Shown one piece after another: positions 17,384-58,740 of a stretch of 60,569 bases of DNA. The notes beneath the pieces were generated by a model. That model searched no databases. It saw nothing but the letters and a program-made list of their open reading frames with translations, and was not told where the DNA came from. Positions within the stretch are counted from its first letter, which is position 1. Each line of letters opens with the position of its first letter. The DNA lies in contig DATBEX010000049.1 of assembly GCA_036558805.1 (NCBI GenBank), positions 1 to 60,569 of the forward strand. Reading direction: 5' to 3'. Source of the stretch: Candidatus Udaeobacter sp. (GTDB lineage Bacteria; Verrucomicrobiota; Verrucomicrobiia; Chthoniobacterales; UBA10450). The position numbers and the translations under genes were made by a program.

Positions 17384-17389
17384 ATCCGA

Positions 17390-20983: not shown

Positions 20984-20992
20984 TGGTTTCTG

Positions 20993-24233: not shown

Positions 24234-24274
24234 TTCGCGTTCTTTCGTCTCTTGAATTGACGGTCACGGCGTCC

Positions 24275-26352: not shown

Positions 26353-26357
26353 CCTGA

Positions 26358-27410: not shown

Positions 27411-27446
27411 CAGCTTAGCTCGGCCGTGAGGGTGAATACTTGCCAA

Positions 27447-30573: not shown

Positions 30574-30604
30574 TCATTCGCAGCCCAATAAATCCAGAGA
30601 TCGG

Positions 30605-31144: not shown

Positions 31145-31150
31145 AACCAG

Positions 31151-32449: not shown

Positions 32450-32475
32450 TATGGTCGGGTTGTGTTGTAGCTGTG

Positions 32476-33783
32476 CTACCAGCAGATGCCCTGATAATTC
32501 GGAGAAGCCTTTACGGTTTCGTGGGGCAGGCGAATCAAATCAATAATCAACTTTGAATCGCCGTTGTTGGTTACAGCTTCCTGAATGTTGGAACTGTTCT
32601 TGCCAACTACCACTACGTCACTGGCTGCTATGGCTTCTTTTGCGGAAGAAACCATCAACGATGAAATATGGGGTATTGCTTGCTCGATGTACTGTTTGTT
32701 GGCGCCTACGAGCCTCGCTAAGGCAACCTCTTCGTCGTAGATGCTCAATTTATATCCTTTGCCGATCAGAGTTTCGATCAATCCAACGATCGGACTTTCA
32801 CGGAGATCGTCGGATCCGCCCTTGAAACTGAGGCCCAGCACTCCGACACGATTTTTGCCAGCGTGGCGGATCAGATTGAAGGCCAGCTCGATTTGCTTGC
32901 GATTTGTTTCGAGCACAGCACCGAGCACCGGCATTTCCAAATCCAATTGCTTCGCCTTGTAAAGAATGGCGCGAACGTCCTTTGGCAGACATGAGCCGCC
33001 GAAAGCAAACCCGGGCTTCAGATAATAGGGAGAAATGTTCAGCTTTGTATCTTTGCAAAAAATCTCCATTACTTTGTGGCTATCCGTGCCCATCGCCTTA
33101 CAGAGATTTCCGATCTCATTTGCGAAGCACACTTTCAGGGCGTGAAATGCGTTGGAGGCGTACTTGATCAACTCAGCTACTGAAAGCGGCGTACGCTCTA
33201 CAGGAGTTTTTAGGGTAGAATAAAGACTTGCAACTCGTTCAGCAGCACGCTCGTCATCGGTTCCGATAATCGTAAATGGAGGATTATGAAAATCATGAAT
33301 AGCTGTCGTTTCGCGCATGAACTCTGGATTCATGCAGATCCCGAAGTCCTTTCCATCCTTTTTACCAGATTCTTTTTCCAGCAAGGGACGGACTACATCG
33401 TTCAACGTTCCCGGTAAAATCGTGCTTCGGACAACCACGACGTGGTAGCTGTTTGCTTTTTGTAGCAGCTGTCCGATCTCGGTTACAACTCTGTTGAGCT
33501 GGGAAAGACCCAGACTGCCATTATCATTACTCGGCGTGCCAACACAAACCAGGGAAACGTCGCCGAGGCTCTGCACGCGCTGAGTAGCTCGCAGGCGCTT
33601 CGCCTCGACAGCGCGGCCAATCAACTCTTCCAAACCCGGCTCAATAATGGGGCTTTTCCCGGAGTTAATGAGCGAGACTTTAATCTCTTGCAAGTCCACG
33701 CCAGTTACGGAATGACCCATCTCAGCCAAACATGCTGCCGTTACACATCCCACGTACCCCATTCCGAAAACCGTGACATCCAT
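32476..33783 (-). CDS. Nucleotide-sugar 6-dehydrogenase, GDP-mannose 6-dehydrogenase (AlgD)-like
   Basis: 435-aa [58 protein letters not shown] closely parallels the AlgD N-terminus as I recall it. GGSCLPKDV catalytic Cys. Confidence 0.8.
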
Positions 33784-33805
33784 AGAAGAAATTGTGTTGA
33801 TAGCT

Positions 33806-34783
33806 CTAACGTTGAGTTGACGCTGGAGTCTTCGCGATACCAGCGCAAAACTGTGCCACCTTGCTGGGAGTCGCGTTCCAAAACGCCCCGCTGTACCGAC
33901 GACTCACGTAATCCAGGAACGATTTGTAATGGCTCACCGGATATTCCGCTCGTCCGACTGGTGCGTCACCAAAGCATAAGTAATCAGGATGGACATCAAC
34001 TAGCGCCATTCCGCCGTGTTGAGCGATCCAATCGAGTTTTCGCAGCCAGATCTCCGGCGTCTTCTCTTGCAACAATACGAAAAGTGTAAAGTCCTGAGGA
34101 AGCGTATAGGGGACCTCAACGTAACCTCTTGAAGAAGGGCTGATGACTGGTGGTTCGGGGTTGATGGAGCTGCCGTTTGGGTGTGGCACCCAGAATGGGA
34201 AGATGGTGTGGCGACCGTCAGGCTGCGGTTCAAATGGGTCCGTATCAAAGGTAGATGCATCGTACTGCACATCGAGATCGTGCAACCAATCGAGGTGACG
34301 CAACATGAACCCTGATCTGAAACCCGAGGCGCCCCACTCACGCGCATAACTGTTGATCTTCGCGGCGCGGCGCTTGAACTTGCGTCGCGAGGAAAACAGA
34401 TGTCCATCGTGTTTCAGATCGTGAATTCCCACCTCGAACCCCCTGGCAGTCAGTTCCTCCCTTAATTCTGCTGGGACTCGGTAACTGCCTTCGGGAATAA
34501 AATTAAAGGAAGAACGGAACCCAAGGTCCAATTCCAATTGCATTAAGGATCGGCACCTGTTCAGGCCTCTTTTGCTCTCGACGTCGTGGGTCAGAACAAG
34601 CGCAAATTTCTTGCCCTCCGGCCACCCGGGCCAATTTTGCGGCGGGCGTTCCGAACCTGGCATAATCGGCCAAACATCTCGGGTGCGCTTGCGTAACCGC
34701 ATTGCCAGCCTTCGTCGAATCGCCGTTCGAAGAAATTGCGGGACAAACGGTTTTAGCCCGTAGTAAATTCGATTGCGTAACAT
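33806..34783 (-). CDS. Polysaccharide deacetylase-like (NodB/CE4-like) protein
   Basis: 325-aa [14 protein letters not shown] .. [13 protein letters not shown] .. GFRSG resemble the metal/catalytic motifs of the deacetylase fold. Moderate confidence. Confidence 0.55.
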
Positions 34784-34797
34784 GAGCTATCGCAGGT

Positions 34798-34935
34798 TCA
34801 GCGCTCGTAGTAAACGTCCTTGGGGCGCCCCAACGACGTGTTGAAGGCTTTTGTCTGCTCCGCGTGCTTCCGATCTTCCATCCGGTATGGAAGCGCGAGC
34901 AGGAGTATAAGCAAAAGTAAGAAGACGAATAGCAT
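34798..34935 (-). CDS. Candidate 45-aa single-pass membrane peptide
   Basis: Below the ORF-track size cut-off. Hand translation: MLFVFLLLLILLLALPYRMEDRKHAEQTKAFNTSLGRPKDVYYER. Fills most of the 233-bp gap between two operon genes on the same strand. No clear SD. Confidence 0.3.
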   Translation of the reverse strand: MLFVFLLLLILLLALPYRMEDRKHAEQTKAFNTSLGRPKDVYYER

Positions 34936-35016
34936 CCGCAGGATATTAATGATCCCAGAGGGGCCGTAAGCTAATCAGACATTGTAACCGCCGTGCCCCT
35001 CTATGAATGCGGCCGA

Positions 35017-37023
35017 TTAAGACTCGGAATCAAGCCACCTTGGGACGTAAGAACGCGACTTGTTTACCACGACGGCAACGTTCTTTCGTTCAGCTATCAG
35101 CTTTGCGTAGCTGCGCTTAATGACCTCACGGTTGTTTTTCTCTGCCTCGACCACGACCAGAAGCTTGTCCATGAAAGCAGCCATCCCCCACGTGGGACTC
35201 GTTTGGTCCAGCGGGGGCATATCAAAGATAATGTAGTCGAAGTCGCTAGCCTTCATATTCGGCATCATGTCGAAGAACTTTTTCAACCCGAGTTGCGCCG
35301 GACCCCCAGTACTAGGCGATCCCACTGTAGCAAGGTAGAGATTGTCCGCAGCCGAGGCTATGGAGTCGGATGGCTTAAGAGCCTTGTTCAAAGGATAAGC
35401 AGGTTTACCCTTGAAAAACGGGTGGACCTCCTCCGGTCCCAGGTTCACATCGACGAGAAGCACCTTACCGTCGTTTGTTTCTGAAAGCGACGCAGCGAGG
35501 CCAGCGGCAAGCGTGGAAGCTCCTCCGTGCTCCGAAACGCTGGCAACACCAACCAGCTTCGGTTTATGCGTCAAATGATTGAGCTCGAAGTAAAGACCAA
35601 GGCGGTCTCGGATTGCATCACAATATGGCCGAATGAAATGCTCGGATTCCCATGGTGCTAACTTGGGATTTCGCCGCCCTGTGGTAAGTGCTCCCTGCTT
35701 AGCCGATGAACCATTACGAGGCAATGCGAAGTGCCCGTTCGCGTAGGGGATCGACAGCATCAATGGAATATGTAACTGCGTCTCCAGTTGAAGCGGCCGC
35801 CCAACGGTCTGGTTTAAAACCAAACCCTTTAGCAAAGCTAATGCTATTCCGAGAGCTATCCCGCCGCCAGCCAGTGCCAAGGCAATCTTGTCGCGCGTTT
35901 TGGTCTCCAAGCCGGGGGGCGAAGGCCGCTGCACTGCGCTAATGTTAGGCATCTTGGATGGATCCAGAGCCTCATCGACGCGTGCCTTCTCGAGCGACGC
36001 GGCGAAGTACTTGTAATTGGTTTCATCCATTTCCTTCTTACGTTCCAAGTCTTCAATTTGCGGAGCCAGCTCCGAAAGTTGTTTCGTTCTCTGCTGAACA
36101 TCGCGAAGCCTGGTCTTCAGCGCTACAATTTTCGCCTGCGTCCCAGCGACCTTGCCCTTAGGGTCATCTGCAGGTTTTTTCTTTCCCCAGGTCTTCGTTG
36201 AATTTTCGCCTTTGTGACTAACAAGAGCTTGTTGCTCCGCTAGGTCCGCCTCAGCGGAGTTGAGTTGTTCCTGAGCTTTTCCGGCCTCAGCAGTAAGGGC
36301 CGCTGAGCCCTCTTTAAGCGATGCAATTCCTGTTTTCTCTCTAAGTGTCTTCAGAGCGTCCTCTGTCTGGTTTAAACGCGTGCGGACTTGATCGGTTTGT
36401 TGAGACACGAAATCAAAGGCGTCGGCAGAGCGATGGACTTCAAGATGTTTGACGAAATAACGGCTTAACAACTCCTGCAAAACGAGAGTCGCAACTTCCG
36501 GATTGCGGTTCTTATAGGAAATCAAAATGATGCTGCTTCCTTTTGTTGAAATTACCTTCAAACCCGAAGCAATGCTTTGCGCCGCTTCAGCTTCTGTTGC
36601 CGATGCTCCGGAAGGCGGCAACCATCGTTGAAGGCCGATCCCCCGCATTAGCCTTGAGAACAAGTCTTGCGGCGGTGGCAGCAATCGCTGGGGACCGAGC
36701 GCCTGGGCAACTTGAACTGCCAGATCCCAACTGGTCAGAATCTCGATTTCAGCGCCGATGACTCTATCCGCTTCCTGGTTCGACGCGGTTGCCGCTTTTT
36801 CTGCGTCGATTGGGTCGACGGCACTTCGTTCCGTAACATATCGCACAAGCAGCTTGGCCTGGGACTGGTAGGAAGGCGGAAAGAGGAAATAAACCGCCGC
36901 CGCAGCAATAATACCCACCGCCGCGCATACGATAATTGTTCGCTTTCGTTTAAACAGAGCAAAGAGAATATCGCCCAGCTTTACTCCAGAGTGATGTTGA
37001 GGTTCGTGTCGGATTTCAGCCAT
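35017..37023 (-). CDS. Polysaccharide co-polymerase (Wzz/GumC-like) fused to a BY-kinase-like P-loop domain with a degenerate Walker A
   Basis: 668-aa ORF with N-terminal Wzz-type TM (IIVCAAVGIIAAAAVYFLF), a long coiled-coil periplasmic region and a second TM. C-terminal VASVSEHGGASTLAAGLA (no Walker Lys), VLLVDVNL, FDYIIFDMPP. No C-terminal Tyr cluster. Confidence 0.8.
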   Translation of the reverse strand: MAEIRHEPQHHSGVKLGDILFALFKRKRTIIVCAAVGIIAAAAVYFLFPPSYQSQAKLLVRYVTERSAVDPIDAEKAATASNQEADRVIGAEIEILTSWDLAVQVAQALGPQRLLPPPQDLFSRLMRGIGLQRWLPPSGASATEAEAAQSIASGLKVISTKGSSIILISYKNRNPEVATLVLQELLSRYFVKHLEVHRSADAFDFVSQQTDQVRTRLNQTEDALKTLREKTGIASLKEGSAALTAEAGKAQEQLNSAEADLAEQQALVSHKGENSTKTWGKKKPADDPKGKVAGTQAKIVALKTRLRDVQQRTKQLSELAPQIEDLERKKEMDETNYKYFAASLEKARVDEALDPSKMPNISAVQRPSPPGLETKTRDKIALALAGGGIALGIALALLKGLVLNQTVGRPLQLETQLHIPLMLSIPYANGHFALPRNGSSAKQGALTTGRRNPKLAPWESEHFIRPYCDAIRDRLGLYFELNHLTHKPKLVGVASVSEHGGASTLAAGLAASLSETNDGKVLLVDVNLGPEEVHPFFKGKPAYPLNKALKPSDSIASAADNLYLATVGSPSTGGPAQLGLKKFFDMMPNMKASDFDYIIFDMPPLDQTSPTWGMAAFMDKLLVVVEAEKNNREVIKRSYAKLIAERKNVAVVVNKSRSYVPRWLDSES

Positions 37024-37034
37024 AGTTTTGTCTC

Positions 37035-38063
37035 CTAGTCGAGATGCGGATAGATGAGTGAGCCTGCCAGCCTGTTGAACACCAGCGGTAACCTGCCAAA
37101 GACTCTCTTGTGGAAGCCGGAATCACGGCGGGCAGGTCCTAAGCAGTGTCGGCCTAATGGATCGATTCGAAAGTAATCAATTGTTTCTTCCTGCGTATCC
37201 CATGAGAGTTTGAATCGTCGCAAACCGTCATTTTCGCAGTCGGTGCGACCGAAATGTAATTTTTCGACGCCGGCGCGCGCCAAAAACTGGATGCCTTGCC
37301 ACATCACAAGGTTATTTGCGCGGAATTCCTGAAACCTCTTGTCAGAAGCGCCGTACTTATAAACAGCGCTCTTTCCAAAGCGGAAGAAGATCGCCGCTGC
37401 AATTGGACGCGCGCCACGCTGTGCGAGGACAATGAATCCCAGACCGGGCTTGATGATATGCTCGTAAATGTTGAAGAAAAATGATGCAGGCTGTGGCGGG
37501 AGACCGTGGCGGCGGCGCGTTTGGACATGGAGGCGGTAAAAATCGCTGACGGCCTGGCGATTGCGGACGACAACCGTGCTCACATCGCTGCGTTGCCCTT
37601 TGCGAATCGCGCGGCGAACAGGACTGCTGAAGCGCTTGGCCAGCTCCTCAACGCGAAGGCGCAAATCCAGGGTATGCCCGAAGAATTTTACTGGGGAAGC
37701 GCAGGCGGATCGAAAGCATCTACCTCCGCGGATTTCCAAATGCTTCCACCGGCGTTCCCGGGCGAAGCAAATGAGACGATCCGTTATCACGCCGGCTAGA
37801 TCTGGATCAAAGATTAGCGGTTCGCAGACATCGCTGAATGGGAGGCAGACGCCGCGCCGTCCAGTTATTGGGCTCCGCACTTCCATCAGCGGTATTAACG
37901 CGACTAACCGGCGTCCGTGGGAAAACTGGAGGTAAAAAGGCTGATGATTATAAGTCTCGTGGAGAACCTTCGCCCAGGCACTGGTGTGGAAGCAATTGGC
38001 GTCACGATGCAACGCAATCACCAGGTCCCAACCGGGATTGTGAATGGGATTAATAATCCACAT
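37035..38063 (-). CDS. FemAB-family protein (EPS-locus type)
   Basis: The ORF track gives 37035..38210. ATG 38063 (MWIINPIHNPGW) avoids a 35-nt overlap. FHTSAWAKVLHETYNHQPFYL .. IPLMEV .. FKLSWDTQEE .. AVYKYGASD fit the FemAB/lipid II glycyltransferase-like pattern. Confidence 0.75.
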   Translation of the reverse strand: MWIINPIHNPGWDLVIALHRDANCFHTSAWAKVLHETYNHQPFYLQFSHGRRLVALIPLMEVRSPITGRRGVCLPFSDVCEPLIFDPDLAGVITDRLICFARERRWKHLEIRGGRCFRSACASPVKFFGHTLDLRLRVEELAKRFSSPVRRAIRKGQRSDVSTVVVRNRQAVSDFYRLHVQTRRRHGLPPQPASFFFNIYEHIIKPGLGFIVLAQRGARPIAAAIFFRFGKSAVYKYGASDKRFQEFRANNLVMWQGIQFLARAGVEKLHFGRTDCENDGLRRFKLSWDTQEETIDYFRIDPLGRHCLGPARRDSGFHKRVFGRLPLVFNRLAGSLIYPHLD

Positions 38064-38175
38064 TTGCAGCGGTTCCTCGCTGGTTCTCTGCCCTGCAGGA
38101 GACTCTTCAACAGAAGAGGGCGCGGCTTCTACGGGTTGTGGCTTGGTTGACTGAAGAGTTTTCAAAAATCTTTTC

Positions 38176-39294
38176 CTATGCGAAAGCTTCCACCCCAACC
38201 GGTTCACCAACGCAGCGCGCTACATATTCGACCTGTTGTTGGGTTAACTCCGGAAACATTGGAAGAGAAAGAAATTCGTCGGCCAGCCTCTCGGCGATTG
38301 GAAACGCGCCGCGCTCATAACCGAGGTTCCGGCACGCATCCTGAAGATGGATGGGAACGGGATAATGCACGGCGCAGCCAACTCCTTTCGCCTGAAGATG
38401 TCGTAAGACTGCATCACGCTGTTGCACTCGAATGGCATAGACGTGATAGACGTGCCGTGCGTAACTCGCCTCTAACGGTGTAAGAATTTCATCGATTCCC
38501 GCGAAAGCCTTGTTGTATTCCGAGGCATGTTTGCGGCGCCGGGAATTTGCTTCGTCCAGGTGACGGAGTTTGACAGATAAGACTGCTCCTTGAATGCCGT
38601 CCATCCGGCAGTTCCATCCCATCAGCGCATGGTAATATTTTCGTGACTGGCCGTGGTCTCGGAGCATCTGAATTTGTTTTCGCAACTCGGGATCGTTCGT
38701 CACGACCGCACCACCCTCGCCGAAAGCCCCAAGATTTTTTCCGGGATAAAAACTGAAGCAGCCCGCGTCAGCTATCGTACCGGCTTTTCGGCCTTTGTAC
38801 CTGGAGCCATGCGCCTGAGCTGCATCTTCAACGACAAAAAGGCCGTGGGCGCGTGCAAATTGCAAGATTGGATCCATGTCTGCCGGCTGACCGAAAAGAT
38901 GGACCGGGATGATCGCCTTGGTTTTCTTCGTCAGGGCCTTTTCAAGTTCCGCCGGGTTCATTGTGAATGTGTCCGGGTCCACGTCCACAAACACGGGTCG
39001 AGCTTTGCAGTAAGTAATCGCCTCGACGGTGGCAATAAACGTGTTCGGAACCGTGATTACTTCATCGCCTTCGCCGATTCCAAGCGCCAGAAGAGCGAGC
39101 CAAAGCGCGTCGGTGCCATTGCCAACTGCGATTGCGTGTGAGGAGCCGCAGAAGGCAGCGAACTCTTCTTCGAACTTTTCTACGAACGGTCCACCGGCAA
39201 ACGCGCTGCTTTCAATCACTTCGCGAATTGCCCGATCGAACGTTTCAATTAGGGGAGCGTGATGCGCCCTCAGGTCGAGGAAAGGAACTTTCAT
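38176..39294 (-). CDS. DegT/DnrJ/EryC1/StrS family PLP-dependent sugar aminotransferase (WbpE/WlbC-like)
   Basis: 372-aa ORF. MKVPFLDLRAHH .. AIAVGNGTDALWLAL .. FSFYPGKNLGAFGEGGAVVTND (the Lys in YPGKNLG would be the PLP-binding Lys). Confidence 0.9.
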   Translation of the reverse strand: MKVPFLDLRAHHAPLIETFDRAIREVIESSAFAGGPFVEKFEEEFAAFCGSSHAIAVGNGTDALWLALLALGIGEGDEVITVPNTFIATVEAITYCKARPVFVDVDPDTFTMNPAELEKALTKKTKAIIPVHLFGQPADMDPILQFARAHGLFVVEDAAQAHGSRYKGRKAGTIADAGCFSFYPGKNLGAFGEGGAVVTNDPELRKQIQMLRDHGQSRKYYHALMGWNCRMDGIQGAVLSVKLRHLDEANSRRRKHASEYNKAFAGIDEILTPLEASYARHVYHVYAIRVQQRDAVLRHLQAKGVGCAVHYPVPIHLQDACRNLGYERGAFPIAERLADEFLSLPMFPELTQQQVEYVARCVGEPVGVEAFA

Positions 39295-39382
39295 TGCTAT
39301 TTAATCGATGCGGCGAACTCTCGGAGTTACAGCCAACGCGTCACCGCGGCGCGCTGGGTTGTTCCAACGCTGGCCGAACTGG

Positions 39383-40492
39383 TTATCCGGCGGCGAATAC
39401 TTCTGCGGGAACAATTTCTGGCTTTACTCTCGGCGACGCGAAGACCGGCGCCGCACCATTGGAAGAAGCAAGTGCAACCGGGGCTCCGTTTATCTTAAGA
39501 GAAGCGCTGGCCGCTTCGAGGATCCTGACCATCTCCAGGCCCCGACGACCATCCGTTAGCGGTTGAGAACTCGTTCGTATGCAGTCAATAAAATGCTGGC
39601 ATGCCAGCTTTAGCGGTTCCTCCTGATGGAGGTATGGGATGTAACTGTCTCCGTAATGGTAGGAGTATTGAAATTCAGCAAACGTGTCGTAGTGCGGCGG
39701 ACGTTCTACGCGCGCATCGTAAATACGGATTTTTTCACGAGTCCGCAAATCGTCATACACGATCATGCGGCGCGTACCGACGATGGTCATCTCGCGAATC
39801 TTTCGTGGCTCAAGCCAGCTGCTCTGGATCGTCGCGAAACGCTTGCGTGAAAAGGACAACGACATGTTTGTCACGTCCTCTACTCCAGGCGTTATATGAG
39901 CGTTGCCCTGGCAGTTAATCGTAGTGGGAAATTCGTCCAGAATGTGAAGAATGATCGAGATGTCGTGTGGCGCCAGATCCCAGGCGACATTAATGTCTTT
40001 TTGGAATAGTCCCAGATTAAGGCGTCGGCAATTGATATAACGGATCTCGCCCAGGTCTCCGGCTTGAACGATTTGGGCAATCTTCTGCACGGGCGAAGAG
40101 TAGAGAAAAGTGTGGTCCAGCATCAAAGTCAGACCCTTGCGATCCGCAATCTCGATCAGTTCCTCGCATTCGGCTGAAGAGGAAGCCATCGGTTTTTCGA
40201 TAAACGTATGCTTCCCCGCCAGAAGGGCTGCTTTTGCTAATGAATAATGGTGCTTAACCGGGGTCGCGATGACCACAGCATCCACGTTTGTACCGTTGAG
40301 GAGCTGCTGCGTTTGTGTGATGCCTTCGATGTCCGGATATAGAGCGCGGACATGTTTCAGGCGTTCAGGGTTGAGGTCGCAGACCGCTTTGAGTTGGCAG
40401 TCCGGAAGGCTTTTAAAATTGCGAACCAAAAGCGGTCCCCAGTAGCCGCACCCGATTATGCCGACTGTGATTGGTTTTTTCATGGGCTTCAA
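39383..40492 (-). CDS. Gfo/Idh/MocA family oxidoreductase (WlbA/WbpB-like context)
   Basis: 369-aa ORF. ITVGIIGCGYWGPLLVRNF .. FIEKPMASS, adjacent to the DegT aminotransferase. Confidence 0.85.
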   Translation of the reverse strand: MKPMKKPITVGIIGCGYWGPLLVRNFKSLPDCQLKAVCDLNPERLKHVRALYPDIEGITQTQQLLNGTNVDAVVIATPVKHHYSLAKAALLAGKHTFIEKPMASSSAECEELIEIADRKGLTLMLDHTFLYSSPVQKIAQIVQAGDLGEIRYINCRRLNLGLFQKDINVAWDLAPHDISIILHILDEFPTTINCQGNAHITPGVEDVTNMSLSFSRKRFATIQSSWLEPRKIREMTIVGTRRMIVYDDLRTREKIRIYDARVERPPHYDTFAEFQYSYHYGDSYIPYLHQEEPLKLACQHFIDCIRTSSQPLTDGRRGLEMVRILEAASASLKINGAPVALASSNGAAPVFASPRVKPEIVPAEVFAAG

Positions 40493-40509
40493 CAGCTGTT
40501 CTTACTAGA

Positions 40510-41421
40510 CTAGACTCGTAAGATGGTTGTTGCGGGTCGGCTGGGACTTTCGTGCGAGGCTTTCACCAGCTTTTTCAAAATCGGTTCGGACGACGCGGGA
40601 GTGCTACCTTGTCCACGATGTTGTGACGCCAGTCGGGATTCGGTCATTTGCCCCGCGATGACGCCGCAGGTCTTGAGCATGATTTTCAGGTCGAGCAAGA
40701 TCGACGCGCTTTTCAGATAGAAAAGATCCATCACGATCATTTCGTTGAACGTAGTCTTGTTCTTGCCGTTCACCTGCCAGTATCCGGTTAACCCAGGCAG
40801 ACCGTTCACGCGTTCCCTTTGCCACGACTCATAATGAGCAAATTCATTCGGCGTGCATGGGCGAGGACCGACCAGGCTCATGTCACCACAAAGGACGTTA
40901 AAAATCTGGGGTAATTCATCCAAACCGCTCGCGCGCAAAAACCGTCCGAAAAGGGTGAGTCGTGGATCGCCGTAAGTATCTAGCTTCGTCATAGGGCGAT
41001 CGGCCTTCATCAATTCGTGGAAGTAGTCTTCGTGACTTTGCGTCTCTGCGCTCACCTTCATTGTTCGAAACTTCCAGATAAGAAAGTGTCTCCCACCCAA
41101 CCCAACGCGTTTCTGTCGGTAGAAAATTGGCCCCGGAGAAGCGAGTCGCGTCACCAGCATGAGCAAAACCATCACGGGCAGCCAAATCGGCAGCGCGATC
41201 AGGACACACGCGACGTCGAGGACCGATTTCCAACCAGGCACCCTAGGCGCAAGCGCTGTTGAGAAATCGATTCTAATCCTTGGAGCTCTCGCGCCATTCC
41301 CGTTCGCCCCGTTGATGTTCAAGCTGTTCCCGTTCGCCCCGCTCCGGTTCAGGCTCTTAAAGGGCAAGCTGCCGCCCTTGGTCGCCCGCCCCAGGTTCGG
41401 GAGATGATCTTCTATCCTCAT
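40510..41421 (-). CDS. Initiating undecaprenyl-phosphate sugar phosphotransferase (small monotopic Bac_transf family)
   Basis: 303-aa ORF. PIFYRQKRVGLGGRHFLIWKFRTM .. DELPQIFNVLCGDMSLVGPRP. First gene of the minus-strand locus. GGAGGA lies 9 nt upstream of the ATG. Confidence 0.9.
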   Translation of the reverse strand: MRIEDHLPNLGRATKGGSLPFKSLNRSGANGNSLNINGANGNGARAPRIRIDFSTALAPRVPGWKSVLDVACVLIALPIWLPVMVLLMLVTRLASPGPIFYRQKRVGLGGRHFLIWKFRTMKVSAETQSHEDYFHELMKADRPMTKLDTYGDPRLTLFGRFLRASGLDELPQIFNVLCGDMSLVGPRPCTPNEFAHYESWQRERVNGLPGLTGYWQVNGKNKTTFNEMIVMDLFYLKSASILLDLKIMLKTCGVIAGQMTESRLASQHRGQGSTPASSEPILKKLVKASHESPSRPATTILRV

Positions 41422-43949: not shown

Positions 43950-45755
43950 ATGAGAAACACCGCACCCGCTATATTCCCGCCTAGTGGAGTCGGCGATAAA
44001 AAGCCGACCAATCAGGCCGTGCTCAATTGGGTGCACGAGATCGAGAAACTGACAAAACCCGAGAACATTTTCTGGTGTGACGGTTCCGAGCGCGAGAATG
44101 ACTTTTTGATCACGGAATCCTTAAAGCAGAACGTGCTGATCAAACTGGACGAACAAAAGGTTTCACGGTCCTACTTGCATCGTTCAAACCCGAACGACGT
44201 CGCGCGAGTGGAGAAGTTCACATTTATTTGCACGCCGACGAAGGAGGAAGCCGGTCCAACAAACAACTGGTCAGAACCGGCAGAAACATATTCGAAGTTG
44301 TATGGGCTGCTGAATGGCGCGATGCGGGGGCGCACCATGTTTGTCGTGCCATACATCATGGGCCCGCCCGATTCTCCCCTAACAAAAGTCGGCTTCGAAA
44401 TCACCGATTCAAAATATGTTGTGCTCAGTATGCGAATCATGACGCGCATGGGCAAAGTCGCGCTGGATCGTCTGGGCAACGATCCAAAAGCGGAATGGAA
44501 CCGTGGCGTGCATTCGTTACTGGATGTCGACCCTGATCGGCGGTTCATCTGTCATTTTCCCCAGGACAACACGATCATCTCGGTCGGCTCCGGCTACGGC
44601 GGCAATGTTTTGCTGAGCAAAAAATGTCTCGCGCTGCGCATAGGGTCGTACCTCGCGCGTAAGCAAGGCTGGATGGCGGAGCACATGCTGATCCTTGGCG
44701 TTGAATCGCCCGAAGGAAAAAAATATCATGTGGCTGCGGCCTTCCCCAGCGCATGTGGCAAAACAAATTTTGCAATGTTGATTCCGCCCGCACACTTCAA
44801 AGGCTGGAAAGTGACGACTGTGGGCGACGACATCGCGTGGATGGAAATTCGCGACGGGCGCTTGTTTGCTGTGAACCCGGAGAACGGATATTTCGGCGTG
44901 GTTCCCGGCACCAGTTACAAGTCGAATCCGAACGCGATGAAATCGATAGAGCACGACACTCTTTACACAAACGTCGCACTCACTGACGATGGTGACGTTT
45001 GGTGGGAAGGAAAAGACGGCGCAGCTCCAGAACACGCTATCGATTGGCGCGGGAATGACTGGACGCCCGACTCAAAAGAAAAGGCCGCGCATCCCAACAG
45101 CCGGTTTGCAACGCCGATGCGCAATAATCCGGCTCTCGATCCCGATGTGGAAAAGGGCGAAGGCGTTCCGATCAGCGCCATCATTTTCGGCGGCCGTCGC
45201 AGCGACACTGTGCCATTGGTCTATGAAGCGTTCGATTGGGTTCACGGTGTTTATCTGGGCGCCACCATGGCCTCCGAGACGACGGCAGCCGCGACGGGCG
45301 CTGTTGGACAAGTCCGACGCGATCCGATGGCAATGCTGCCGTTCTGCGGATACAACATCGGCGATTATTTCCGTCATTGGATCGACATCGGAAAACGCCT
45401 CACCAATCCGCCGCTAATCTTCAATGTGAATTGGTTCCGCAAAGGTGCGACCGGGAAGTTCCTCTGGCCGGGATTCGGGGAGAACATGCGGGTGCTTAAA
45501 TGGGTGATCGATCGCTGTGAGCAAAATGCCAGAGCTGTCAAATCGCCTGTCGGCTGGTTACCCAGTCCACATGATCTCGATCTTGATGGCCTGGACATCG
45601 ATCACACAGGCGTGGCCGAGCTTCTGGGAATCGATCACGAAGAGTGGCAAAAGGAGCTCGCTGCGCACAAGAAGTTTTTCGACTCCCTTGGGGGCGTGGT
45701 TCCGGAGCAATTGCAAAAGCAGCGCGAACAACTCGTCGCGCGCTTTAAGCTGTAG
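43950..45755 (+). CDS. pckG: Phosphoenolpyruvate carboxykinase (GTP)
   Basis: 601-aa ORF. FPSACGKTNFAML kinase-1a motif, GDDIAWM, WFRK. Confidence 0.95.
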   Translation: MRNTAPAIFPPSGVGDKKPTNQAVLNWVHEIEKLTKPENIFWCDGSERENDFLITESLKQNVLIKLDEQKVSRSYLHRSNPNDVARVEKFTFICTPTKEEAGPTNNWSEPAETYSKLYGLLNGAMRGRTMFVVPYIMGPPDSPLTKVGFEITDSKYVVLSMRIMTRMGKVALDRLGNDPKAEWNRGVHSLLDVDPDRRFICHFPQDNTIISVGSGYGGNVLLSKKCLALRIGSYLARKQGWMAEHMLILGVESPEGKKYHVAAAFPSACGKTNFAMLIPPAHFKGWKVTTVGDDIAWMEIRDGRLFAVNPENGYFGVVPGTSYKSNPNAMKSIEHDTLYTNVALTDDGDVWWEGKDGAAPEHAIDWRGNDWTPDSKEKAAHPNSRFATPMRNNPALDPDVEKGEGVPISAIIFGGRRSDTVPLVYEAFDWVHGVYLGATMASETTAAATGAVGQVRRDPMAMLPFCGYNIGDYFRHWIDIGKRLTNPPLIFNVNWFRKGATGKFLWPGFGENMRVLKWVIDRCEQNARAVKSPVGWLPSPHDLDLDGLDIDHTGVAELLGIDHEEWQKELAAHKKFFDSLGGVVPEQLQKQREQLVARFKL

Positions 45756-45861
45756 CCGTCGCTCTGGGCGACGCGCGTGCGGGCGACTGCACAGGGAGCG
45801 TTTCGCAGAGGAAAGCGGCTGCAAGATTTGCGAACCGCTTGACTGGCAGCGAATATTTCCA

Positions 45862-48800
45862 GTGGGTTCGAAGATTGCGAGCGCAAAACATCTCAGATCA
45901 CCAATCGCAAAGGATCACATTGAGATTCGCGGAGCGCGTCAGAACAATCTCAAAGGGATCGACGTCGATCTTCCTCTGGGAAAATTGACGGTGGTCACGG
46001 GCCCGAGCGGTAGCGGCAAATCAAGTCTGGCATTCGAGACCATTTACGCCGAAGGCCAGCGCCGTTATGTCGAAACGTTCAGTCCCTACATGCGGCAATT
46101 TCTCGACCGCATGGACAAGCCCCGCGTAGACGACATCCACGGTATCCCGCCGGCGATTGCCATCGAGCAAGCAAACCCTGTTAAGAGTTCGCGCTCGACT
46201 GTCGGCACCATGACCGAGATCAACGACTACCTGAAATTGCTCTGGCCGCGCGTTGCTCGCGCATTCTGTCCGAATTGCAGCCGCGAAGTTCGGCCTGAAA
46301 CCACGCAGTCAATCAGTCGCCAGATACTGCATGATCACGCCGGGAAAACGGTTCTGATCAATTTCCGGGTGGCCGTTCCAACGAAAACCGAGCCGCGCAC
46401 CTTTTTCGAGTTCCTTCAGCAACAGGGCTACCTCCGCGTATGGATCGACAATCAAATTGTACGCGTCGATGCCGATCCAAAATTCAAGCGACTTGCTGCC
46501 CGTGTACAGGTCATTCAGGATCGCATCGCGATCTCAGAGGAGACATGTGCGCGCCTGGTCGAAGCTATCGAAACGGCGCTGCGATTTGGCAAAGGCAAGA
46601 TCAATGTCATTCCGCTTTCAGAAAACGCCCAACGCTCAACGCCCGGTGTCCAGCGTCCAACTGATCACGGATCACCGATCACGGATCACGAATTTCCTTT
46701 CTCTAACGGCTGGCATTGTGCGCATTGTGATCTCGATCTTCGCCCACCTACACCCGGGTTATTCAGTTTCAATAATCCGCTGGGTGCGTGCCCGGAATGT
46801 CGCGGATTCGGTCGTATCATCGCAATCGATCTGAATAAGGCGATTCCAGACCGCAGCTTGAGCATCAAACAAGGCGTGGTCCGGGTTTTTCGCGGTGCAG
46901 AGTTCGGCGAATCGCAGAAAGATTTGCTTCGGGCGTGTGCGCGCAAAGAGATCGATATCAACCTTCCGTTCGAAGAATTGCCAAAGGCTGATCAGTCCTT
47001 TGTCATCGAAGGTGAGAAACGATCAGGCGATTACACAGACGAGGATTACGAAAACGATCGGTGGTATGGCGTCCGTGGTTTCTTTCGCTGGCTGGAAAGC
47101 AAAACTTACAAGATGCATGTGCGCGTTCTACTGAGCCGCTACCGTGCCTACATCACTTGTCCGAGCTGCAACGGAGGACGATATCAGCCCGAAGCACTAA
47201 ATTACAGGGTCACAACGGCGGTGCATAGTCGCCGGGACGGCGCTCCGAAAGCGCAGTTACCGCTAACCCTCCCCGAATTCCAGGCGCTTTCGCTCCGGGA
47301 TGCCCGGGATTTTCTGACGGCGCTCGAGATTCCGTCAAACGATTCGACTGCACGCATGTTGCGCGAGGAGATTTGTGCGCGCCTCAACTATCTCTGCGAA
47401 GTCGGCGTCGGCTATCTTACGCTCGACCGATCGACGCGTACTTTAAGCGGCGGCGAAGTGCAACGAGTGAACCTCACTACGTGCCTGGGGGCCTCATTGG
47501 TCAACACACTCTTCGTCATGGATGAACCGAGTGTCGGTTTGCATTCGCGCGACGTTGGCCGGCTGGTTCGCGTGATGCACAACTTACGCGACAAAGGCAA
47601 TACGTTGCTCGTGGTCGAGCACGAGGAACAAATCATTCGGTCAGCCGATAATTTGATGGATATCGGCCCAGGCCGCGGCGAACACGGTGGGGAGTTGGTT
47701 TGGAACGGAACGCTGGATGATTTCTGTAGCCGCTTCCCTGGGGGAAGCGCAGGTGCCGATGCTAATAGATCGTCAGGGTCGCGCCGCCCTGAGGGCGACG
47801 GCTACAGGGAATCACTGACGCGCGATTACCTGATGAATCGCAAATCGATTCAGGTTCCGACGTCGCGAAGAACATCGAAGTCGTCGCTCAAGATCATTGG
47901 CGCGCGACAGCACAACCTGAAGAACATCGATGTCGAACTTCCGTTGCGTGTTTTCACGTGTGTCACCGGTGTTTCTGGTTCTGGAAAATCCACGCTGATT
48001 CACGACGTACTCTACAGGAATCTGTCGATCGCAAAGGGACAGTCGTCCCATCACCACCCAACGCAAAACTACAGCTCGGCAGGCGAGCCGGGTGCATGCA
48101 AATCGGTTACCGGAGCGCATCGCATCCGGGATGTAGTCATGGTCGATCAGGCTCCGCTTGCGCGGACGCCCCGATCGACGCCGCTGCTTTATTTGGGGCT
48201 TTACGACCGTGTTCGCGAATTGTTTGCCGCTCAACCGGAAGCAATGTCGCAGGGGCTCACGGCCGGCACATTCTCGTTTAATTCCGGCAGCGGCCGCTGC
48301 GAGCGCTGCTCCGGCACGGGTTACGAGAAAATTGAGATGCAATTTTTGAGCGACCTTTTCGTGCGCTGCGCCGAATGCGAAGGCAAACGGTTTCAGTCCC
48401 ATGTTCTGAAAGTTCAATTGTGCGGAAAATCAATCCACGATCTGCTCAAGCTCACCGTAAGCGAAGCGATCGAATTTTTCGCGCAAATTGGCGAGAAGGA
48501 AACCTTATCTGAGCCGCTTAGCGTACTCGAGGAGGTCGGACTTGGTTATCTGCGATTGGGGCAACCTCTCAACACCCTTTCCGGCGGTGAATCGCAGCGA
48601 CTGAAATTGGTCGGCCATCTCGCGGAAACAGAAAATGTACAACGTTCAAGCGCAACGGAAATCGGCAACTTGTTCATCTTCGATGAACCGACCACGGGAC
48701 TTCACTTCGATGACGTAGCGATGCTACTGCGATTATTTCAGCGCCTGGTCGACCGCGGCCATTCCATCGTGGTGATCGAGCATAATCTCGAAGTCATAAA

Positions 48801-51690
48801 GTGCGCTGATTGGATCGTCGACCTCGGACCGGAAGCAGGAGACGCCGGTGGAAATGTGGTCGCTGCCGGGACTCCAGAGCAAATCGCGAAGGCGGAGACG
48901 TCGCACACAGGCAAATTTTTGAGGCAGGCTCTTTCGAAACCTCGCAAAACATCCCGCCAGTCAGAAAAGTCCTTCGCTTACGCTCAGGATAAAAGTGTGG
49001 AGCTGGCGCGAGCTGCCGAAGAAGCGCCGCCTTTCGGCGCAAATAAAGCGAATGGCACAATCCAGGTTCACGGGGCGCGCGAGCACAACCTCAAGAACAT
49101 CGAGATCAAAATCCCCAGAGAACAAATGGTGGTCATCACAGGTCTAAGTGGCTCCGGCAAATCAACGCTTGCTTTTGATATTCTCTTCGCGGAGGGACAG
49201 CGACGTTTTCTCGACAGCATGTCGCCGTATGCGCGGCAATTCGTCGAGCAGCTCGAAAAACCGGATGTCGACCTGGTCAGCGGGCTGCCTCCCAGTGTAG
49301 CGATTGAGCAACGGGTCACGCGCGGCGGAGGGAAATCGACAGTCGCTACAGTGACGGAGATCTACCATTTTCTCCGGCTACTTTTCGCAAAAACCGGAAC
49401 GCAATCTTGTCCGGCCTGCGATTTGCCGGTGGAGAAACAAAGCCTGGCCGCGATTACGAAACAAATTGAATCATTAGCGAAACGCGGACCGGTGAGAGTG
49501 CTTGCACCGTTGGTCAAGGCTCGAAAAGGCTTTCACACCGAAGTCGCGCGATGGGCGGAACGACAGGGATTCGATGCCCTTTACGTGGATGCGAAACTGG
49601 TTCCCGCCTCGCATTTTCGAAAGCTGGAGCGGTTCAAAGAGCACACGATCGATGTAGTCGTTGGTCTGATCGATCCGAGACGGATTGCGAACGCGCGTGA
49701 GATCGCCCGGCGCGCGCTGGAGATCGGCCGCGGCACGGGTCGGCTGCTTGACTCGAAAAACAGGCTGACGGTCGTGAGCACCGAAATGAGCTGCCCAAAC
49801 TGTGGCCGCGCATTCGAGGAGCTCGATCCACGTTTGTTTTCGTTTAATTCGCCTCACGGCGCGTGCGAAGAATGCGGCGGATTTGGCGAAATCTGGGACC
49901 AGGATTTGCAAACTGCTGCCGATCCCGACGGTGAATCGGTCCTCGAAACCGAGCTCGCCGCTGAGCGTGAGGCAGAATGGATCGAGGAAGGCGCGGCGCG
50001 AGAATGTCCGAGCTGTCACGGCTCACGCTTGAACGCCGTCGCGCGTCATGTACGTATCCAAGGTTATACCATCGATTACTTCACGAATCTTTCGGCCTGC
50101 GAAGCAGCGCGCAAGGTCGAGAGGTTGAAGTTTCGCGGAACGCATCAAACGATCGCTGCCGGTCTCGTTCCTGAAATTCAGCAGCGATTGCGTTTCATGG
50201 AAAAAGTTGGCCTCGGCTATCTCGCGCTGGGACGATCGGCAAAGACGTTGAGCGGCGGAGAATCACAGCGGATTCGATTAGCGGCACAACTCGGCTCAAA
50301 CCTGCGCGGCGTCCTTTACGTACTGGATGAGCCGACGATCGGTCTACATCCCCGGGATAATTTGCGATTGCTCGATACACTGACCGCCCTGCGGAACAAA
50401 GGGAATTCGCTGATTATCGTTGAGCATGACGAGGAAACGATGCGGCGCGCTGATCACATCGTCGATCTAGGTCCACGCGCAGGAATTCACGGCGGCGAAG
50501 TTGTAGCCACGGGCACGCTGCGCGACGTGGAAAAGAATTCGGATTCCGAGACCGCGCGCTGCCTGAAGACTCCACTCCAACATCCCACCCGCGGATCGCG
50601 CCGGTCCTTGGGCAACGTCGAAGACTGGGTCGAAGTCCGTAACGCCAAGGTGAATAATTTGAAAGATATTTCTGTTCGTTTCCCGCTGGGCAGGCTTTCG
50701 GTGATCACAGGAATTTCCGGGAGCGGCAAGTCGACATTGATGCACGAGGTCATCTGGCCGGCGGTACGGGAGCAGCTGAAAGAAAGAAAACGCGCAGGAA
50801 ATGGCGATCTGTTCAAGCTGGTAAACGGTGCGCAAGAGATTGAAGGCGTTTACGAAGTTGATCAGTCGCCGATTGGTAAGACGTCGCGCTCAACGCCGGG
50901 CACCTATGTAAAAGTCTTCGACGAGATCCGGAATCTTTACGCGCAACTGCCGGTCTCCCGCGTACGCGGGTACTCCGCAAGCCGATTTTCGTTCAACGCC
51001 GAAGGCGGTCGCTGCGAGACTTGTAAGGGCCAGGGCGTGATCAAACTGGAGATGAACTTTCTGCCGCGCAGCTATGTGCCGTGCGAAGACTGCGGCGGCA
51101 AACGTTACAATCCGCAAACACTTGAGATACTCTACAACGACAAATCGATCGGCGACGTGATGGAAATGACCATCGAGGAAGCGTCGGAATTTTTCTCGGC
51201 GCATCCCAAAGTCGCGCGACCGCTCTCCTTGCTGGTTGATACGGGGCTGGGTTATCTCAAGCTGGGGCAACCGAGTCCAACGCTAAGCGGCGGAGAAGCG
51301 CAACGACTAAAGCTAGTCACCCAGCTCAAACGTGGCGTTAGCCGCGCAGCTGACGAGCGTATTCGTAAAATGCGCAAACCGGGTTCGACACTGTATTTGC
51401 TGGAGGAACCCACCATCGGTCTGCACATGGCGGACATTGAGCTGCTTCTGAACGTTCTGCATCGGCTCGTCGACGAAGGAAACACGGTGATTGTCATCGA
51501 ACACAATCTTAGTGTGATCGCGGAAGCTGATTACATTGTTGATCTCGGCCCGGAAGCGGGCGCGGACGGAGGTGAAGTCGTCGCCTGCGGTGCGCCCGAA
51601 CAAGTCGCAAAGAGCCGCGTGAGTCGCACCGCGCCGTTTTTGCGAAAAGTATTGAACTCATCGTGCGCGAAAACGGCGTTGTCATCCTGA
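45862..51690 (+). CDS. uvrA: Tandem double UvrA-like ABC ATPase (two complete UvrA units, four ABC modules, 1942 aa)
   Basis: The frame is open from 45517, but its first 79 codons overlap pckG. The first in-frame start after the pckG stop is GTG 45862 (no clear SD). Four Walker A, four LSGGE, four Walker B and six Cys4 modules. Unit 2 begins about 49055 ([14 protein letters not shown]). Confidence 0.9.
46663..46690. repeat. Tandem heptamer GATCACG GATCACC GATCACG GATCACG inside uvrA unit 1
   Basis: Read directly from the sequence. Encodes [10 protein letters not shown]. Four GATC sites in 28 nt. Confidence 0.9.
48969..48990. repeat. Single arm of a palindromic dispersed-repeat motif embedded in the UvrA inter-unit linker
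   Basis: GTCCTTCGCTTACGCTCAGGAT matches the reverse complement of 51684..51704 at 21 of 22 positions (a single 1-nt indel). Confidence 0.8.
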
Positions 51691-58666: not shown

Positions 58667-58740
58667 TGGCTACCCCGCTTGGATTCGAACCAAGAATAAC
58701 GCCTCCAAAGGGCGCTGTGTTACCGTTACACCACGGGGTA
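58667..58740 (-). tRNA. tRNA-Gln(UUG), canonical, CCA encoded
   Basis: Hand fold: acceptor TACCCCG/CGGGGTA (U1-A72), discriminator G, D arm GTGT-AACGGTA-ACAC, anticodon stem GCGCC/GGCGT with loop CTTTGGA, T arm CTTGG-TTCGAAT-CCAAG, then GCCA. Confidence 0.85.

Follow-up and report, generated by a model that had tools for sequence, protein, structure and literature searches.

Canonical class I UvrA, as represented by the E. coli protein and the structures 2r6f, 3pih and 9gxk, is a single polypeptide of about 940-1000 aa that acts as a homodimer. Class II UvrAs (D. radiodurans UvrA2, DrrC and Ecm16; 2vf7, 7sh1) are accessory paralogues with a domain missing that occur beside a canonical UvrA, and their self-resistance subgroup is often found in clusters for DNA-binding drugs. 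Class II proteins are without the UvrB-binding domain and zinc module 1, while the insertion domain is kept (PMC9328131). Double-length forms also exist. Planctomycete tandem UvrAs of 2300-2425 aa, met in the present analysis, are symmetric, with all key residues and an insertion domain in both units, and the 1809-position "excinuclease ABC subunit A" model NF001885 (PRK00635), which we take to be the chlamydial UvrA, likewise describes a double-length protein, so that curated databases already have an entry for tandem UvrAs. Outside this family, eukaryotic MSH2-MSH6, compared with the bacterial MutS homodimer, and ABC transporters with one degenerate ATP site are asymmetric descendants of symmetric dimers.

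Here we analyzed a stretch of 60,569 nucleotides from Candidatus Udaeobacter sp. (contig DATBEX010000049.1, assembly GCA_036558805.1), hereafter the window, in which an earlier note made from the sequence alone had described a double UvrA in one 1942-codon frame. An ORF scan of the window showed that the frame is open from 45517 to 51690; the GTG start at 45862 gives a protein of 1942 aa, well outside the canonical size, and an independent gene call for the same contig, P0001, is identical to it (100% identity and coverage). The four ABC modules and six zinc modules listed in the note were reproduced exactly by a motif scan. Walker A motifs start at aa 47, 703, 1094 and 1617 and LSGGE signatures at aa 528, 906, 1463 and 1808, the four Walker B motifs are VMDEPS, IFDEPT, VLDEPT and LLEEPT, and 12 CxxC pairs make up the six Cys4 modules, three per unit, with all 24 cysteines present. 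Each unit has two ABC ATPase modules complete with Walker A, Walker B, signature and H-loop. The features of the gene are as follows.

45862..51690, + strand: whole tandem UvrA gene, 1942 codons plus stop (ORF and translation; database gene call P0001)
45862..48933, + strand: unit 1 (aa 1-1024), a complete class I-like UvrA with UvrB-binding and insertion domains (end-to-end alignment with 2r6f and 9gxk; architecture code NBISC)
46267..46728, + strand: unit 1 zinc module 1 and UvrB-binding domain, C136..C289 (Pfam UvrA_inter)
46789..47169, + strand: unit 1 zinc module 2 and insertion (DNA-binding) domain, C310..C436, with no second copy in the protein (Pfam UvrA_DNA-bind, Cys spacing)
48298..48378, + strand: unit 1 zinc module 3, signature domain II (flanking arginines R722, R724 and R730 replaced by M, Q and T)
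48934..49050, + strand: inter-unit linker (aa 1025-1063, 39 aa), of low complexity and not conserved (conservation dip)
49051..51687, + strand: unit 2 (aa 1064-1942), a UvrA unit without insertion domain (alignment to 2r6f; architecture code NB-SC)
49408..49803, + strand: unit 2 zinc module 1 and UvrB-binding-domain fold, C1183..C1314 (second Pfam UvrA_inter stretch, HMMER alignment)
49864..50016, + strand: unit 2 zinc module 2, with a 43-aa acidic spacer instead of the insertion domain (Cys spacing)
51013..51093, + strand: unit 2 zinc module 3, signature domain II (R712, R722, R724 and R730 all kept)
51397..51414, + strand: fourth Walker B, LLEEPT (Glu in place of the Asp found in every canonical UvrA compared)

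Each unit thus shares with a canonical class I protomer a core of two ABC modules, three zinc modules and the UvrB-binding-domain fold, and unit 1 has the full class I domain set; unlike the canonical protein, the two units lie in one chain. The proposal that unit 2 has lost its insertion domain, made from the spacing of the Cys pairs in zinc module 2 (119 aa for unit 1 as against 43 aa for unit 2), was borne out in two ways: Pfam has two matches to UvrA_inter but a single one to UvrA_DNA-bind (aa 323-393), and unit 2 aligns with residues 24-322 and 405-961 of B. stearothermophilus UvrA (2r6f), skipping that domain. The spacer has a net charge of -12, and in Chthoniobacterales and Verrucomicrobiales homologues it is 34-44 aa long, acidic and carries a motif like S[VM]LExEL..ER. 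The units are diverged, as the note had held, with an identity of 33-41% to each other and of 40% (unit 1) and 45-50% (unit 2) to E. coli UvrA. Linker length across the tandem family has a median of 23 aa and a range of 9-57. Structure prediction for unit 2 reached a pLDDT of 36.8 and gave no usable model. The window protein scores 1156 bits against NF001885, below the cut-off of 3054, and is therefore not a member of that family; ten other tandem representatives also fall under the cut-off.

The asymmetry of the two units was then followed at the residue level, by comparison with 80 canonical UvrAs at positions where 77-80 of the 80 agree (E. coli numbering), with retention counted over 58 unit 1s and 58 unit 2s of the family. 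At R216 and E222, which are changed together in a published UvrB-surface mutant (R216A E222A; PMC3025350), the window protein has R and E in unit 1 and N and R in unit 2. At R712, R722, R724 and R730, the residues of a published DNA-binding mutant (PMC3025350), it has R, M, Q and T in unit 1 and four arginines in unit 2. The family behaves similarly: unit 1s keep R216 in 52 and E222 in 39 of 58 cases, both being lost in unit 2, while R722, R724 and R730 are lost in unit 1, with R730 kept in 0/58 unit 1s compared to 80/80 canonical UvrAs. Family unit 2s keep R712 (58/58), R722 (53/58, as K or R), R724 (48/58) and R730 (41/58). Judged from these alignments, the units have lost different, complementary residues of predicted function, and in contrast to canonical class I UvrA, unit 2 is without both insertion domain and UvrB contacts and unit 1 without the signature-II arginines, an asymmetry that extends well beyond the missing domain.

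The UvrB-contact residues R176, D205, R206, R216 and E222 are all kept in the window's unit 1; retention among family unit 1s is 0.90-0.98 for the first four and 0.67 for E222, compared to 0.96-1.00 in canonical UvrAs, which argues for selection on these residues for binding of UvrB (or Mfd). The UvrB-binding-domain fold of unit 2 keeps a different conserved set (A152, P153, K159, G160, D180, L192 and H198). Since it is thus still under selection, at other residues, it may bind some partner, possibly UvrB in another way, a point against the reading favoured below. Both units have kept the dimer-interface and wedge residues R52, Y53, Y60, Q63, F64 and P81 of canonical class I UvrA. The fourth Walker B reads xxEEPT in 65 of 69 Verrucomicrobiota homologues, the others being gapped or garbled; the corresponding D857 is Asp in 80/80 canonical UvrAs and Glu in 19/58 family unit 2s, and this exchange might change one ATPase site, which also counts against that reading.

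The reading that we favour, and hold to be somewhat likelier right than wrong, is that the fused paralogue is an intramolecular pseudo-dimer serving as an auxiliary, asymmetric damage sensor that loads one UvrB. Units 1 and 2 of a single chain would meet head to head, as two protomers do in an ordinary UvrA dimer; the sole insertion domain and the sole intact surface for UvrB contact would come from unit 1, and the DNA-binding arginines that canonical UvrAs have in signature domain II from unit 2. Because UvrB contacts and insertion domain are found only in unit 1 and the signature-II arginines in unit 2, we infer that, of the two sides for docking UvrB, one is composite and intact and the other degenerate. 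Such a hard-wired sensor would bind DNA and load a single UvrB, in effect a natural complex of the UvrA2-UvrB1 type, and its lesion range might differ from that of canonical UvrA. A pseudo-dimer of units 1 and 2 is plausible and has indirect support; intramolecular pairing, a stoichiometry of one UvrB and a role in excision repair are inferences. According to published work, it is the protomer with its own insertion domain displaced that the first UvrB binds to (PMC11985968), which fits a unit 1 bearing both elements. The arrangement would resemble MSH2-MSH6 and the degenerate-site ABC transporters in that duplication would have been followed by complementary loss, each half keeping a different part of the homodimer's asymmetric job. 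It differs from them in that the families are unrelated, the UvrA halves are covalently joined and the four ATPase sites look intact. As regards head-to-head pairing, none of the four ATPase sites has been lost, and neither have the dimer-interface and wedge residues; some family linkers are just 9-14 aa long, which we count against it.

These short linkers and the dimer-interface residues kept in both units would also suit a pairing of two tandem polypeptides, like unit with like unit or in a swapped arrangement, into an assembly of eight ATPases. We consider this unlikely, as joining like units would leave one dimer fully intact and the other fully dead.

It is likewise improbable that the tandem UvrA is a UvrB-independent protection or drug-tolerance factor of the DrrC/Ecm16/UvrA2 kind that removes intercalators or other ligands from DNA at the expense of ATP. 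The earlier note had drawn a link to such factors, and the resemblance is real to the extent that this is a fast-evolving UvrA paralogue with one domain missing alongside a canonical UvrA; moreover, class II paralogues work without the excision-repair machinery (PMC9328131), and tandem proteins made of two class II units exist (17 clusters), as do those combining class I and class II. However, by domain content the protein is not a class II UvrA, as zinc module 1 and UvrA_inter are present in both units; unit 2 shows the reverse of the class II pattern, lacking the insertion domain, and unit 1 misses no domain. The retention of UvrB contacts in unit 1, apparently under selection, also speaks against the link, and so does the neighbourhood. 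Unlike members of the self-resistance subgroup, the tandem UvrA has no antibiotic-cluster context: the PEPCK gene upstream ends at 45755, the Pfam-scanned neighbours are PEPCK, lgt, exbB, a tonB-like gene and sufBD, and the gene cluster further upstream is one for polysaccharide synthesis. The neighbourhood is housekeeping and not a biosynthetic cluster. No uvrB or uvrC was found among the Pfam-scanned genes, which comprised these neighbours and ten of the largest upstream ORFs.

A housekeeping, syntenic context would equally be expected if the tandem protein were the organism's sole UvrA and the fusion a neutral covalent form of the normal homodimer. Consistent with this, the whole protein scores 2050 and 2000 bits against the NCBIfam UvrA equivalogs, both halves pass TIGR00630 (cut-off 730), no uvrA besides the tandem gene was found in the window, and double-length UvrA, for which NCBIfam has NF001885, is to our knowledge the only one in Chlamydia. 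Single halves, on the other hand, reach 971 and 1067 bits against NF001503, both below its cut-off of 1147, and canonical UvrAs form their own clade (bootstrap 87%). By clade and equivalog cut-off together, the tandem protein is thus not an orthologue of canonical UvrA. Four relatives (L010, L015, L017 and L027) have, on the contig that bears the tandem gene and some 6-7 kb upstream of it, a canonical single-length uvrA whose product shares 51-54% identity with the E. coli protein. Canonical UvrA is also abundant in assemblies with a Udaeobacter label: at least 120 canonical clusters, several of them named Udaeobacter or Verrucomicrobia, match one Udaeobacter-labelled UvrA at 87-100% identity. 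The tandem UvrA is therefore a paralogue in these relatives and not necessarily the main UvrA, and the window's own lineage probably carries both genes. The tandem units also evolve faster: for the same genome pairs, identity is 90-93% for the canonical and 81-90% for the tandem protein, and core identity is 0.70 among canonical UvrAs but only 0.48-0.52 between tandem units and canonical UvrAs. The loss of residues present in 77-80 of 80 canonical UvrAs indicates that the fusion is not neutral, and we regard a sole housekeeping UvrA as distinctly improbable.

The chance that two adjacent uvrA-like genes were merged through faulty sequencing or assembly of the junction is negligible, and this artefact is refuted for practical purposes: the longest frame is shorter at L028, L038, L060, L061 and L065, but an uninterrupted double-length frame is found in about 65 independent Verrucomicrobiota assemblies (45-88% identity; many projects and technologies), double-length UvrAs fill more than 100 clusters at 50% identity, and the gene contains no long nucleotide repeats able to cause misassembly. 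The longest frame reaches at least 1750 codons in 69 of 80 related Verrucomicrobiota loci, and the 65 of these that are uncut by contig ends have frames of about 1820-2140 codons. The four Walker A, signature and H-loop motifs are each kept in at least 65 of the 69 homologues, most of them in 69/69, the four ATPase sites and the full set of zinc ligands are conserved throughout, and conservation is roughly equal in the two units with a dip at the linker. Neither unit is therefore a degraded remnant, one of two outcomes that the earlier note had said would overturn its reading.

These data establish the tandem-fused UvrA as a real, conserved gene typical of Verrucomicrobiota, and its status as the norm across the phylum, its coexistence with canonical uvrA in relatives and the complementary residue loss go beyond what had been noted before. 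No functional study of a tandem or double UvrA was found in the open literature, in agreement with the note, which had also stated correctly that double-length annotations exist; the family is common in databases under the name "excinuclease ABC subunit UvrA". The combination of a class I unit with an insertion-domain-less unit accounts for 48 of 150 representatives. The nearest neighbour was another unit 1 for 58/58 unit 1s and another unit 2 for 53/58 unit 2s, with weak neighbour-joining bootstrap values for monophyly of the unit 1 (41%) and unit 2 (23%) clades, a further point against the favoured reading. Outside Verrucomicrobiota, the same architecture is present in Betaproteobacteria and one Spirochaetaceae MAG, and the same residue pattern is seen in Xenophilus, Caenimonas, Thauera, Bordetella, Kinetoplastibacterium and Spirochaetaceae.

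The open frame that contains the tandem uvrA gene runs from 45517 to 51690 on the forward strand, and since it extends 345 nt upstream of the start codon, the ORF list gives 2057 aa instead of 1942. This extra open stretch 5′ of the likely start (45517..45861) overlaps the 3′ end of the upstream PEPCK gene. An independent gene call on the window's contig (protein P0001) gave 1942 aa, with 100% identity and coverage to the frame described in the earlier note. The gene, its upstream neighbour and the parts of unit 2 discussed below (residues in E. coli numbering) are:

45862..51690, + strand: tandem uvrA, GTG start at 45862, 1942 codons
ends at 45755: GTP-dependent PEP carboxykinase (PEPCK), upstream neighbour of tandem uvrA
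49408..49803: UvrB-binding-domain fold of unit 2, carrying A152, P153, K159, G160, D180, L192 and H198
49864..50016: conserved, very acidic spacer of unit 2, net charge -12, with a motif resembling [12 protein letters not shown]
51397..51414: fourth Walker B (unit 2, second ATPase module; aa 1846-1851), EEPT replacing DEPT

Every motif listed in the earlier note was found again in the translation and by a motif scan, and the anatomy it proposed was right: Walker A at aa 47, 703, 1094 and 1617, LSGGE at aa 528, 906, 1463 and 1808, the Walker B series VMDEPS, IFDEPT, VLDEPT and LLEEPT, and 12 CxxC pairs that make up six Cys4 modules; the scan also found four H-loops. The Walker B aspartate at the EEPT site is invariant in 80 canonical UvrAs, and its replacement by glutamate is seen in 65 of the 69 aligned Verrucomicrobiota members (the remainder being gapped or garbled) and is missing in most family members outside that phylum. 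Two low-complexity insertions were noted in unit 1, one in the UvrB-binding domain (46620..46700, aa ~255-280) and one in the linker between the ATPase modules (47720..47810, aa ~620-650); both are variable or absent among homologues (gap fraction ~0.3). Scans for promoters and terminators near the gene returned nothing beyond chance expectation, and no SOS-box-like palindrome was seen by eye in the 107-bp spacer upstream of it.

We then examined conservation in a homologue scan that took one genome per GTDB species, analysing the best 80 of more than 597 related stretches. All 80 were labelled Verrucomicrobiota or unclassified, at 45-88% identity, and they included Ca. Udaeobacter, other Chthoniobacterales, Terrimicrobiaceae, Prosthecobacter, Brevifollis and Opitutia. 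The longest frame reached at least 1750 codons in 69 of these loci, and in the 65 of them that no contig end truncates it spanned ~1820-2140 codons. In the protein database, a further 120 clusters or more were found with lengths of 1875-2061 aa, 78-87% identical to the window protein and named, where a name was given, 'excinuclease ABC subunit A/UvrA'. Because uninterrupted frames of comparable length recur in the Verrucomicrobiota loci and in these clusters, an assembly artefact at the junction is ruled out, and the matches point to a soil verrucomicrobium like Ca. Udaeobacter as the origin of the window. Neither is one unit a degraded remnant, a possibility that the earlier note had raised: the alignment of the 69 full-length homologues shows conservation of Walker A, signature and H-loop in all four copies, the two units are conserved to about the same degree, and neither is decaying.

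Parsing the protein with UvrA HMMs, as the earlier note had proposed, matched both halves; the NCBIfam UvrA equivalogs scored 2050 and 2000 bits against the whole protein and 970-1067 bits against each half. By Pfam, the protein has two UvrB-interaction domains but a single UvrA DNA-binding (insertion) domain, located at aa 323-393. Along its whole length unit 1 can be aligned with solved structures of class I UvrA, and unit 2 covers residues 24-322 and 405-961 of B. stearothermophilus UvrA, that is, all but the insertion domain. The zinc module 2 spacing is 119 aa in unit 1 versus 43 aa in unit 2, which lacks the insertion domain. The units are diverged, sharing 33-41% identity, and each resembles E. 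coli UvrA (unit 1 40%, unit 2 45-50%) more than its partner. At the nucleotide level the gene has no internal repeat beyond a 44-nt conserved motif. A structure prediction for unit 2 (mean pLDDT 36.8, pTM 0.25; 23-row alignment of 86-92% identical homologues) was unusable. The earlier note's suggestion of a DrrC-type link was not supported, as the window protein is not class II and carries the UvrB-interaction domain in both units.

The asymmetry of the two units proved deeper and more orderly than had been noted, in that residues are lost reciprocally. As a baseline we used 80 canonical single-length UvrAs from many phyla, and we considered the residues changed in two published mutants, namely E. 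coli R216 and E222 in the UvrB-surface mutant and R712, R722, R724 and R730 in the DNA-binding mutant (PMC3025350).

Table. Retention of UvrB-surface and DNA-binding residues (E. coli numbering) in canonical UvrAs and in the two units of the tandem family, with the residues of the window protein (unit 1 / unit 2).
R216 (UvrB surface): canonical 80/80; unit 1 52/58; unit 2 ~0.07-0.09 kept; window R / N
E222 (UvrB surface): canonical 77/80; unit 1 39/58; unit 2 13/58; window E / R
R712 (DNA binding): canonical 80/80; unit 1 57/58; unit 2 58/58; window R / R
R722 (DNA binding, K/R counted): canonical 79/80; unit 1 26/58; unit 2 53/58; window M / R
R724 (DNA binding): canonical 79/80; unit 1 19/58; unit 2 48/58; window Q / R
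R730 (DNA binding): canonical 80/80; unit 1 0/58; unit 2 41/58; window T / R

An unbiased pass over all 308 positions that are at least 95% conserved in canonical UvrAs found the ATPase and signature cores retained at ~0.70-0.82 in both units; the positions at which the units differ strongly lie in the UvrB-binding domain, in the insertion domain, near G502 and in signature II. When the UvrB-binding domain was realigned locally, its conserved positions fell into two sets: unit 1 has retained R176, D205, R206, R216, S220 and E222, which unit 2 has lost, and unit 2 has retained G116, A152, P153, K159, G160, D180, L192 and H198, which unit 1 has lost. The residues R52, Y53, Y60, Q63, F64 and P81 (E. 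coli numbering), which form the dimer interface and DNA wedge in C. thermocellum UvrA (PMC12796330), are kept in both units. In Verrucomicrobiota, a strongly acidic spacer of 34-44 aa replaces the insertion domain of unit 2. This spacer occupies the position of a DNA-clamping domain in canonical UvrA.

The tandem protein thus has its only insertion domain and its only intact UvrB surface on one unit, unit 1. In M. tuberculosis complexes, it is the protomer with its own insertion domain displaced that receives the first UvrB (PMC11985968). The UvrB-binding surface of unit 1 and signature II of unit 2 would be the two halves of one composite site, which is retained, and the parts that the tandem protein has lost would be the two halves of the other. 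The simplest model would be an intramolecular head-to-head pseudo-dimer with a single UvrB-loading side, acting beside canonical UvrA, and the single copy of the insertion domain may perhaps alter its specificity. A possible, if rather doubtful, reading is that of an obligately asymmetric UvrA 'heterodimer' occurring in nature, with exactly one UvrB docked on a fixed side, the interplay of insertion domain and UvrB-binding domain confined to unit 1, and DNA anchoring confined to unit 2. The normal UvrA dimer is symmetric, yet the outcome of repair is a single UvrB on a single strand, and how this symmetry is broken is debated; open questions in bacterial excision repair are the stoichiometry, UvrA2B1 versus UvrA2B2, and the way in which a sensor that is symmetric passes the lesion on to just one UvrB, and on the correct strand (PMC11985968). 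If this reading is true, the tandem protein would offer a ready-made system for both questions; it would be a natural single-sided UvrA. The family shows what evolution keeps once protomers can specialise, namely a single insertion domain, a single UvrB-contact surface, and the signature-II DNA contacts on the opposite unit.

Within the 60,569-nt window there is no second UvrA. In four Chthoniobacterales loci (L010, L015, L017 and L027), with tandem proteins that share 72-74% identity with that of the window, a second uvrA lies ~6-7 kb upstream of the tandem gene on the opposite strand; it is of single length (~950-990 aa), and its product is 51-54% identical to E. coli UvrA along its entire length. 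One of them lies on a complete 4.18-Mb chromosome:

273..3257 of locus L017, - strand: canonical uvrA

A canonical UvrA from a Udaeobacter MAG, used as a query, matched at least 120 clusters (960-992 aa, 87-100% identical), some of which bear the name Ca. Udaeobacter or Verrucomicrobia. On one 413-kb contig with a canonical uvrA of the Udaeobacter type, no tandem gene was found within 10 kb of it. Judged from these relatives, the tandem gene is a paralogue of canonical uvrA, and because of the second uvrA in the four loci and the many canonical clusters, the lineage probably carries both genes commonly. The tandem protein evolves faster than canonical UvrA: in the same genome pairs canonical UvrA is 90-93% identical versus 81-90% for the tandem protein. 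Measured over 638 well-aligned core columns, identity is 0.70 among canonical UvrAs of many phyla, 0.48-0.52 between units and canonical UvrAs, and 0.44-0.46 among the units.

To place the window protein among other tandem UvrAs, 1.84 billion cluster representatives were searched with a 1200-aa query across the junction, and the best 150 matches were parsed against E. coli UvrA. About 110 of these are proteins of 1500-2343 aa. The window architecture, a class I unit followed by a unit without the insertion domain, accounts for 48 of the best 150; two full class I units are present in 25, two class II units, which lack the UvrB-binding domain, in 17 (P0235 and 16 other clusters, ~1590-1750 aa), and a class I unit plus a class II unit in five; a few show the reverse order. 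Named examples of the window architecture outside Verrucomicrobiota are those in Ca. Kinetoplastibacterium crithidii, Thauera, Aquabacterium, the cultured Xenophilus azovorans DSM 13620 and Caenimonas sedimenti, and in one Bordetella and one Spirochaetaceae MAG; a scan with the Kinetoplastibacterium protein returned one close relative only. The Planctomycetota tandems (P0129, P0140, L213 and L216) differ in being symmetric, class I plus class I, with 2300-2425 aa and an extra C-terminal region. Three single-length UvrA-like proteins without the insertion domain were also seen (P0244, P0251 and P0255; 882-944 aa), two of which fall in the unit 2 clade. These could be either short-contig fragments of tandem genes or genuine split versions.

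As the earlier note had said, double-length UvrA annotations exist in databases, where tandem UvrAs are plentiful and partly curated: besides the at least 120 clusters there is NF001885, an NCBIfam model of 1809 positions. Membership of NF001885 was rejected for the window protein, at 1156 bits against a cut-off of 3054, and for ten other tandem representatives, all below the cut-off. By sequence, the tandem protein is built of UvrA units and predicted to work in a UvrA-like way, and it is neither a plain class I UvrA, nor a class II UvrA, nor a member of NF001885. Our search of the open literature found no description of a tandem, double or 'class III' UvrA and, in line with the earlier note, no functional characterisation of one, although a published mention is possible. 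The family is common and already named 'UvrA' in databases, and its mechanism appears to be unstudied. Since hundreds of tandem proteins are named plain 'UvrA', though at least some host genomes also carry canonical uvrA, excision-repair presence/absence calls may conflate two proteins, in Verrucomicrobiota and in other groups.

With regard to the origin of the fusion, the nearest neighbour of unit 1 is another unit 1 in all 58 family members, and that of unit 2 is another unit 2 in 53. Neighbour-joining trees also place the unit 1s and unit 2s in separate clades, with bootstrap values of only 41% and 23%, and given this weak bootstrap the grouping rests on nearest neighbours and shared characters. 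The pattern suggests one old fusion for the family. Both units share a Ser80-to-Pro change at the dimer interface, where serine is present in 80 of 80 canonical UvrAs, which suggests that the duplication arose within an already diverged paralogue. The loss of the insertion domain from unit 2 is not universal, since a few family members retain a domain of 100-130 aa there. The inter-unit linker is unconserved, being 39 aa in the window protein against a family median of 23 (range 9-57); P0166, P0165 and P0162 have the shortest, at 9-14 aa.

The tandem gene lies among housekeeping genes, with PEPCK upstream and lgt, exbB, a tonB-like gene and sufBD downstream, and the order PEPCK-tandem uvrA-lgt-exbB recurs in 32-41 of the 80 loci. 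At the site matching that of the relatives' canonical uvrA, the window holds a polysaccharide cluster instead:

~1973..41421, mostly - strand: polysaccharide/O-antigen-type cluster, ~40 kb

It encodes a Wzx-like flippase, a Wzy-like polymerase, a Wzz-like protein, glycosyltransferases, two asparagine-synthase-like amidotransferases, a UDP-glucose dehydrogenase, a sugar transferase and an FG-GAP repeat protein. A tRNA-Thr(CGT) gene lies inside this cluster (19938..20011), and a tRNA-Gln(TTG) gene lies near sufBD (58667..58740, - strand).
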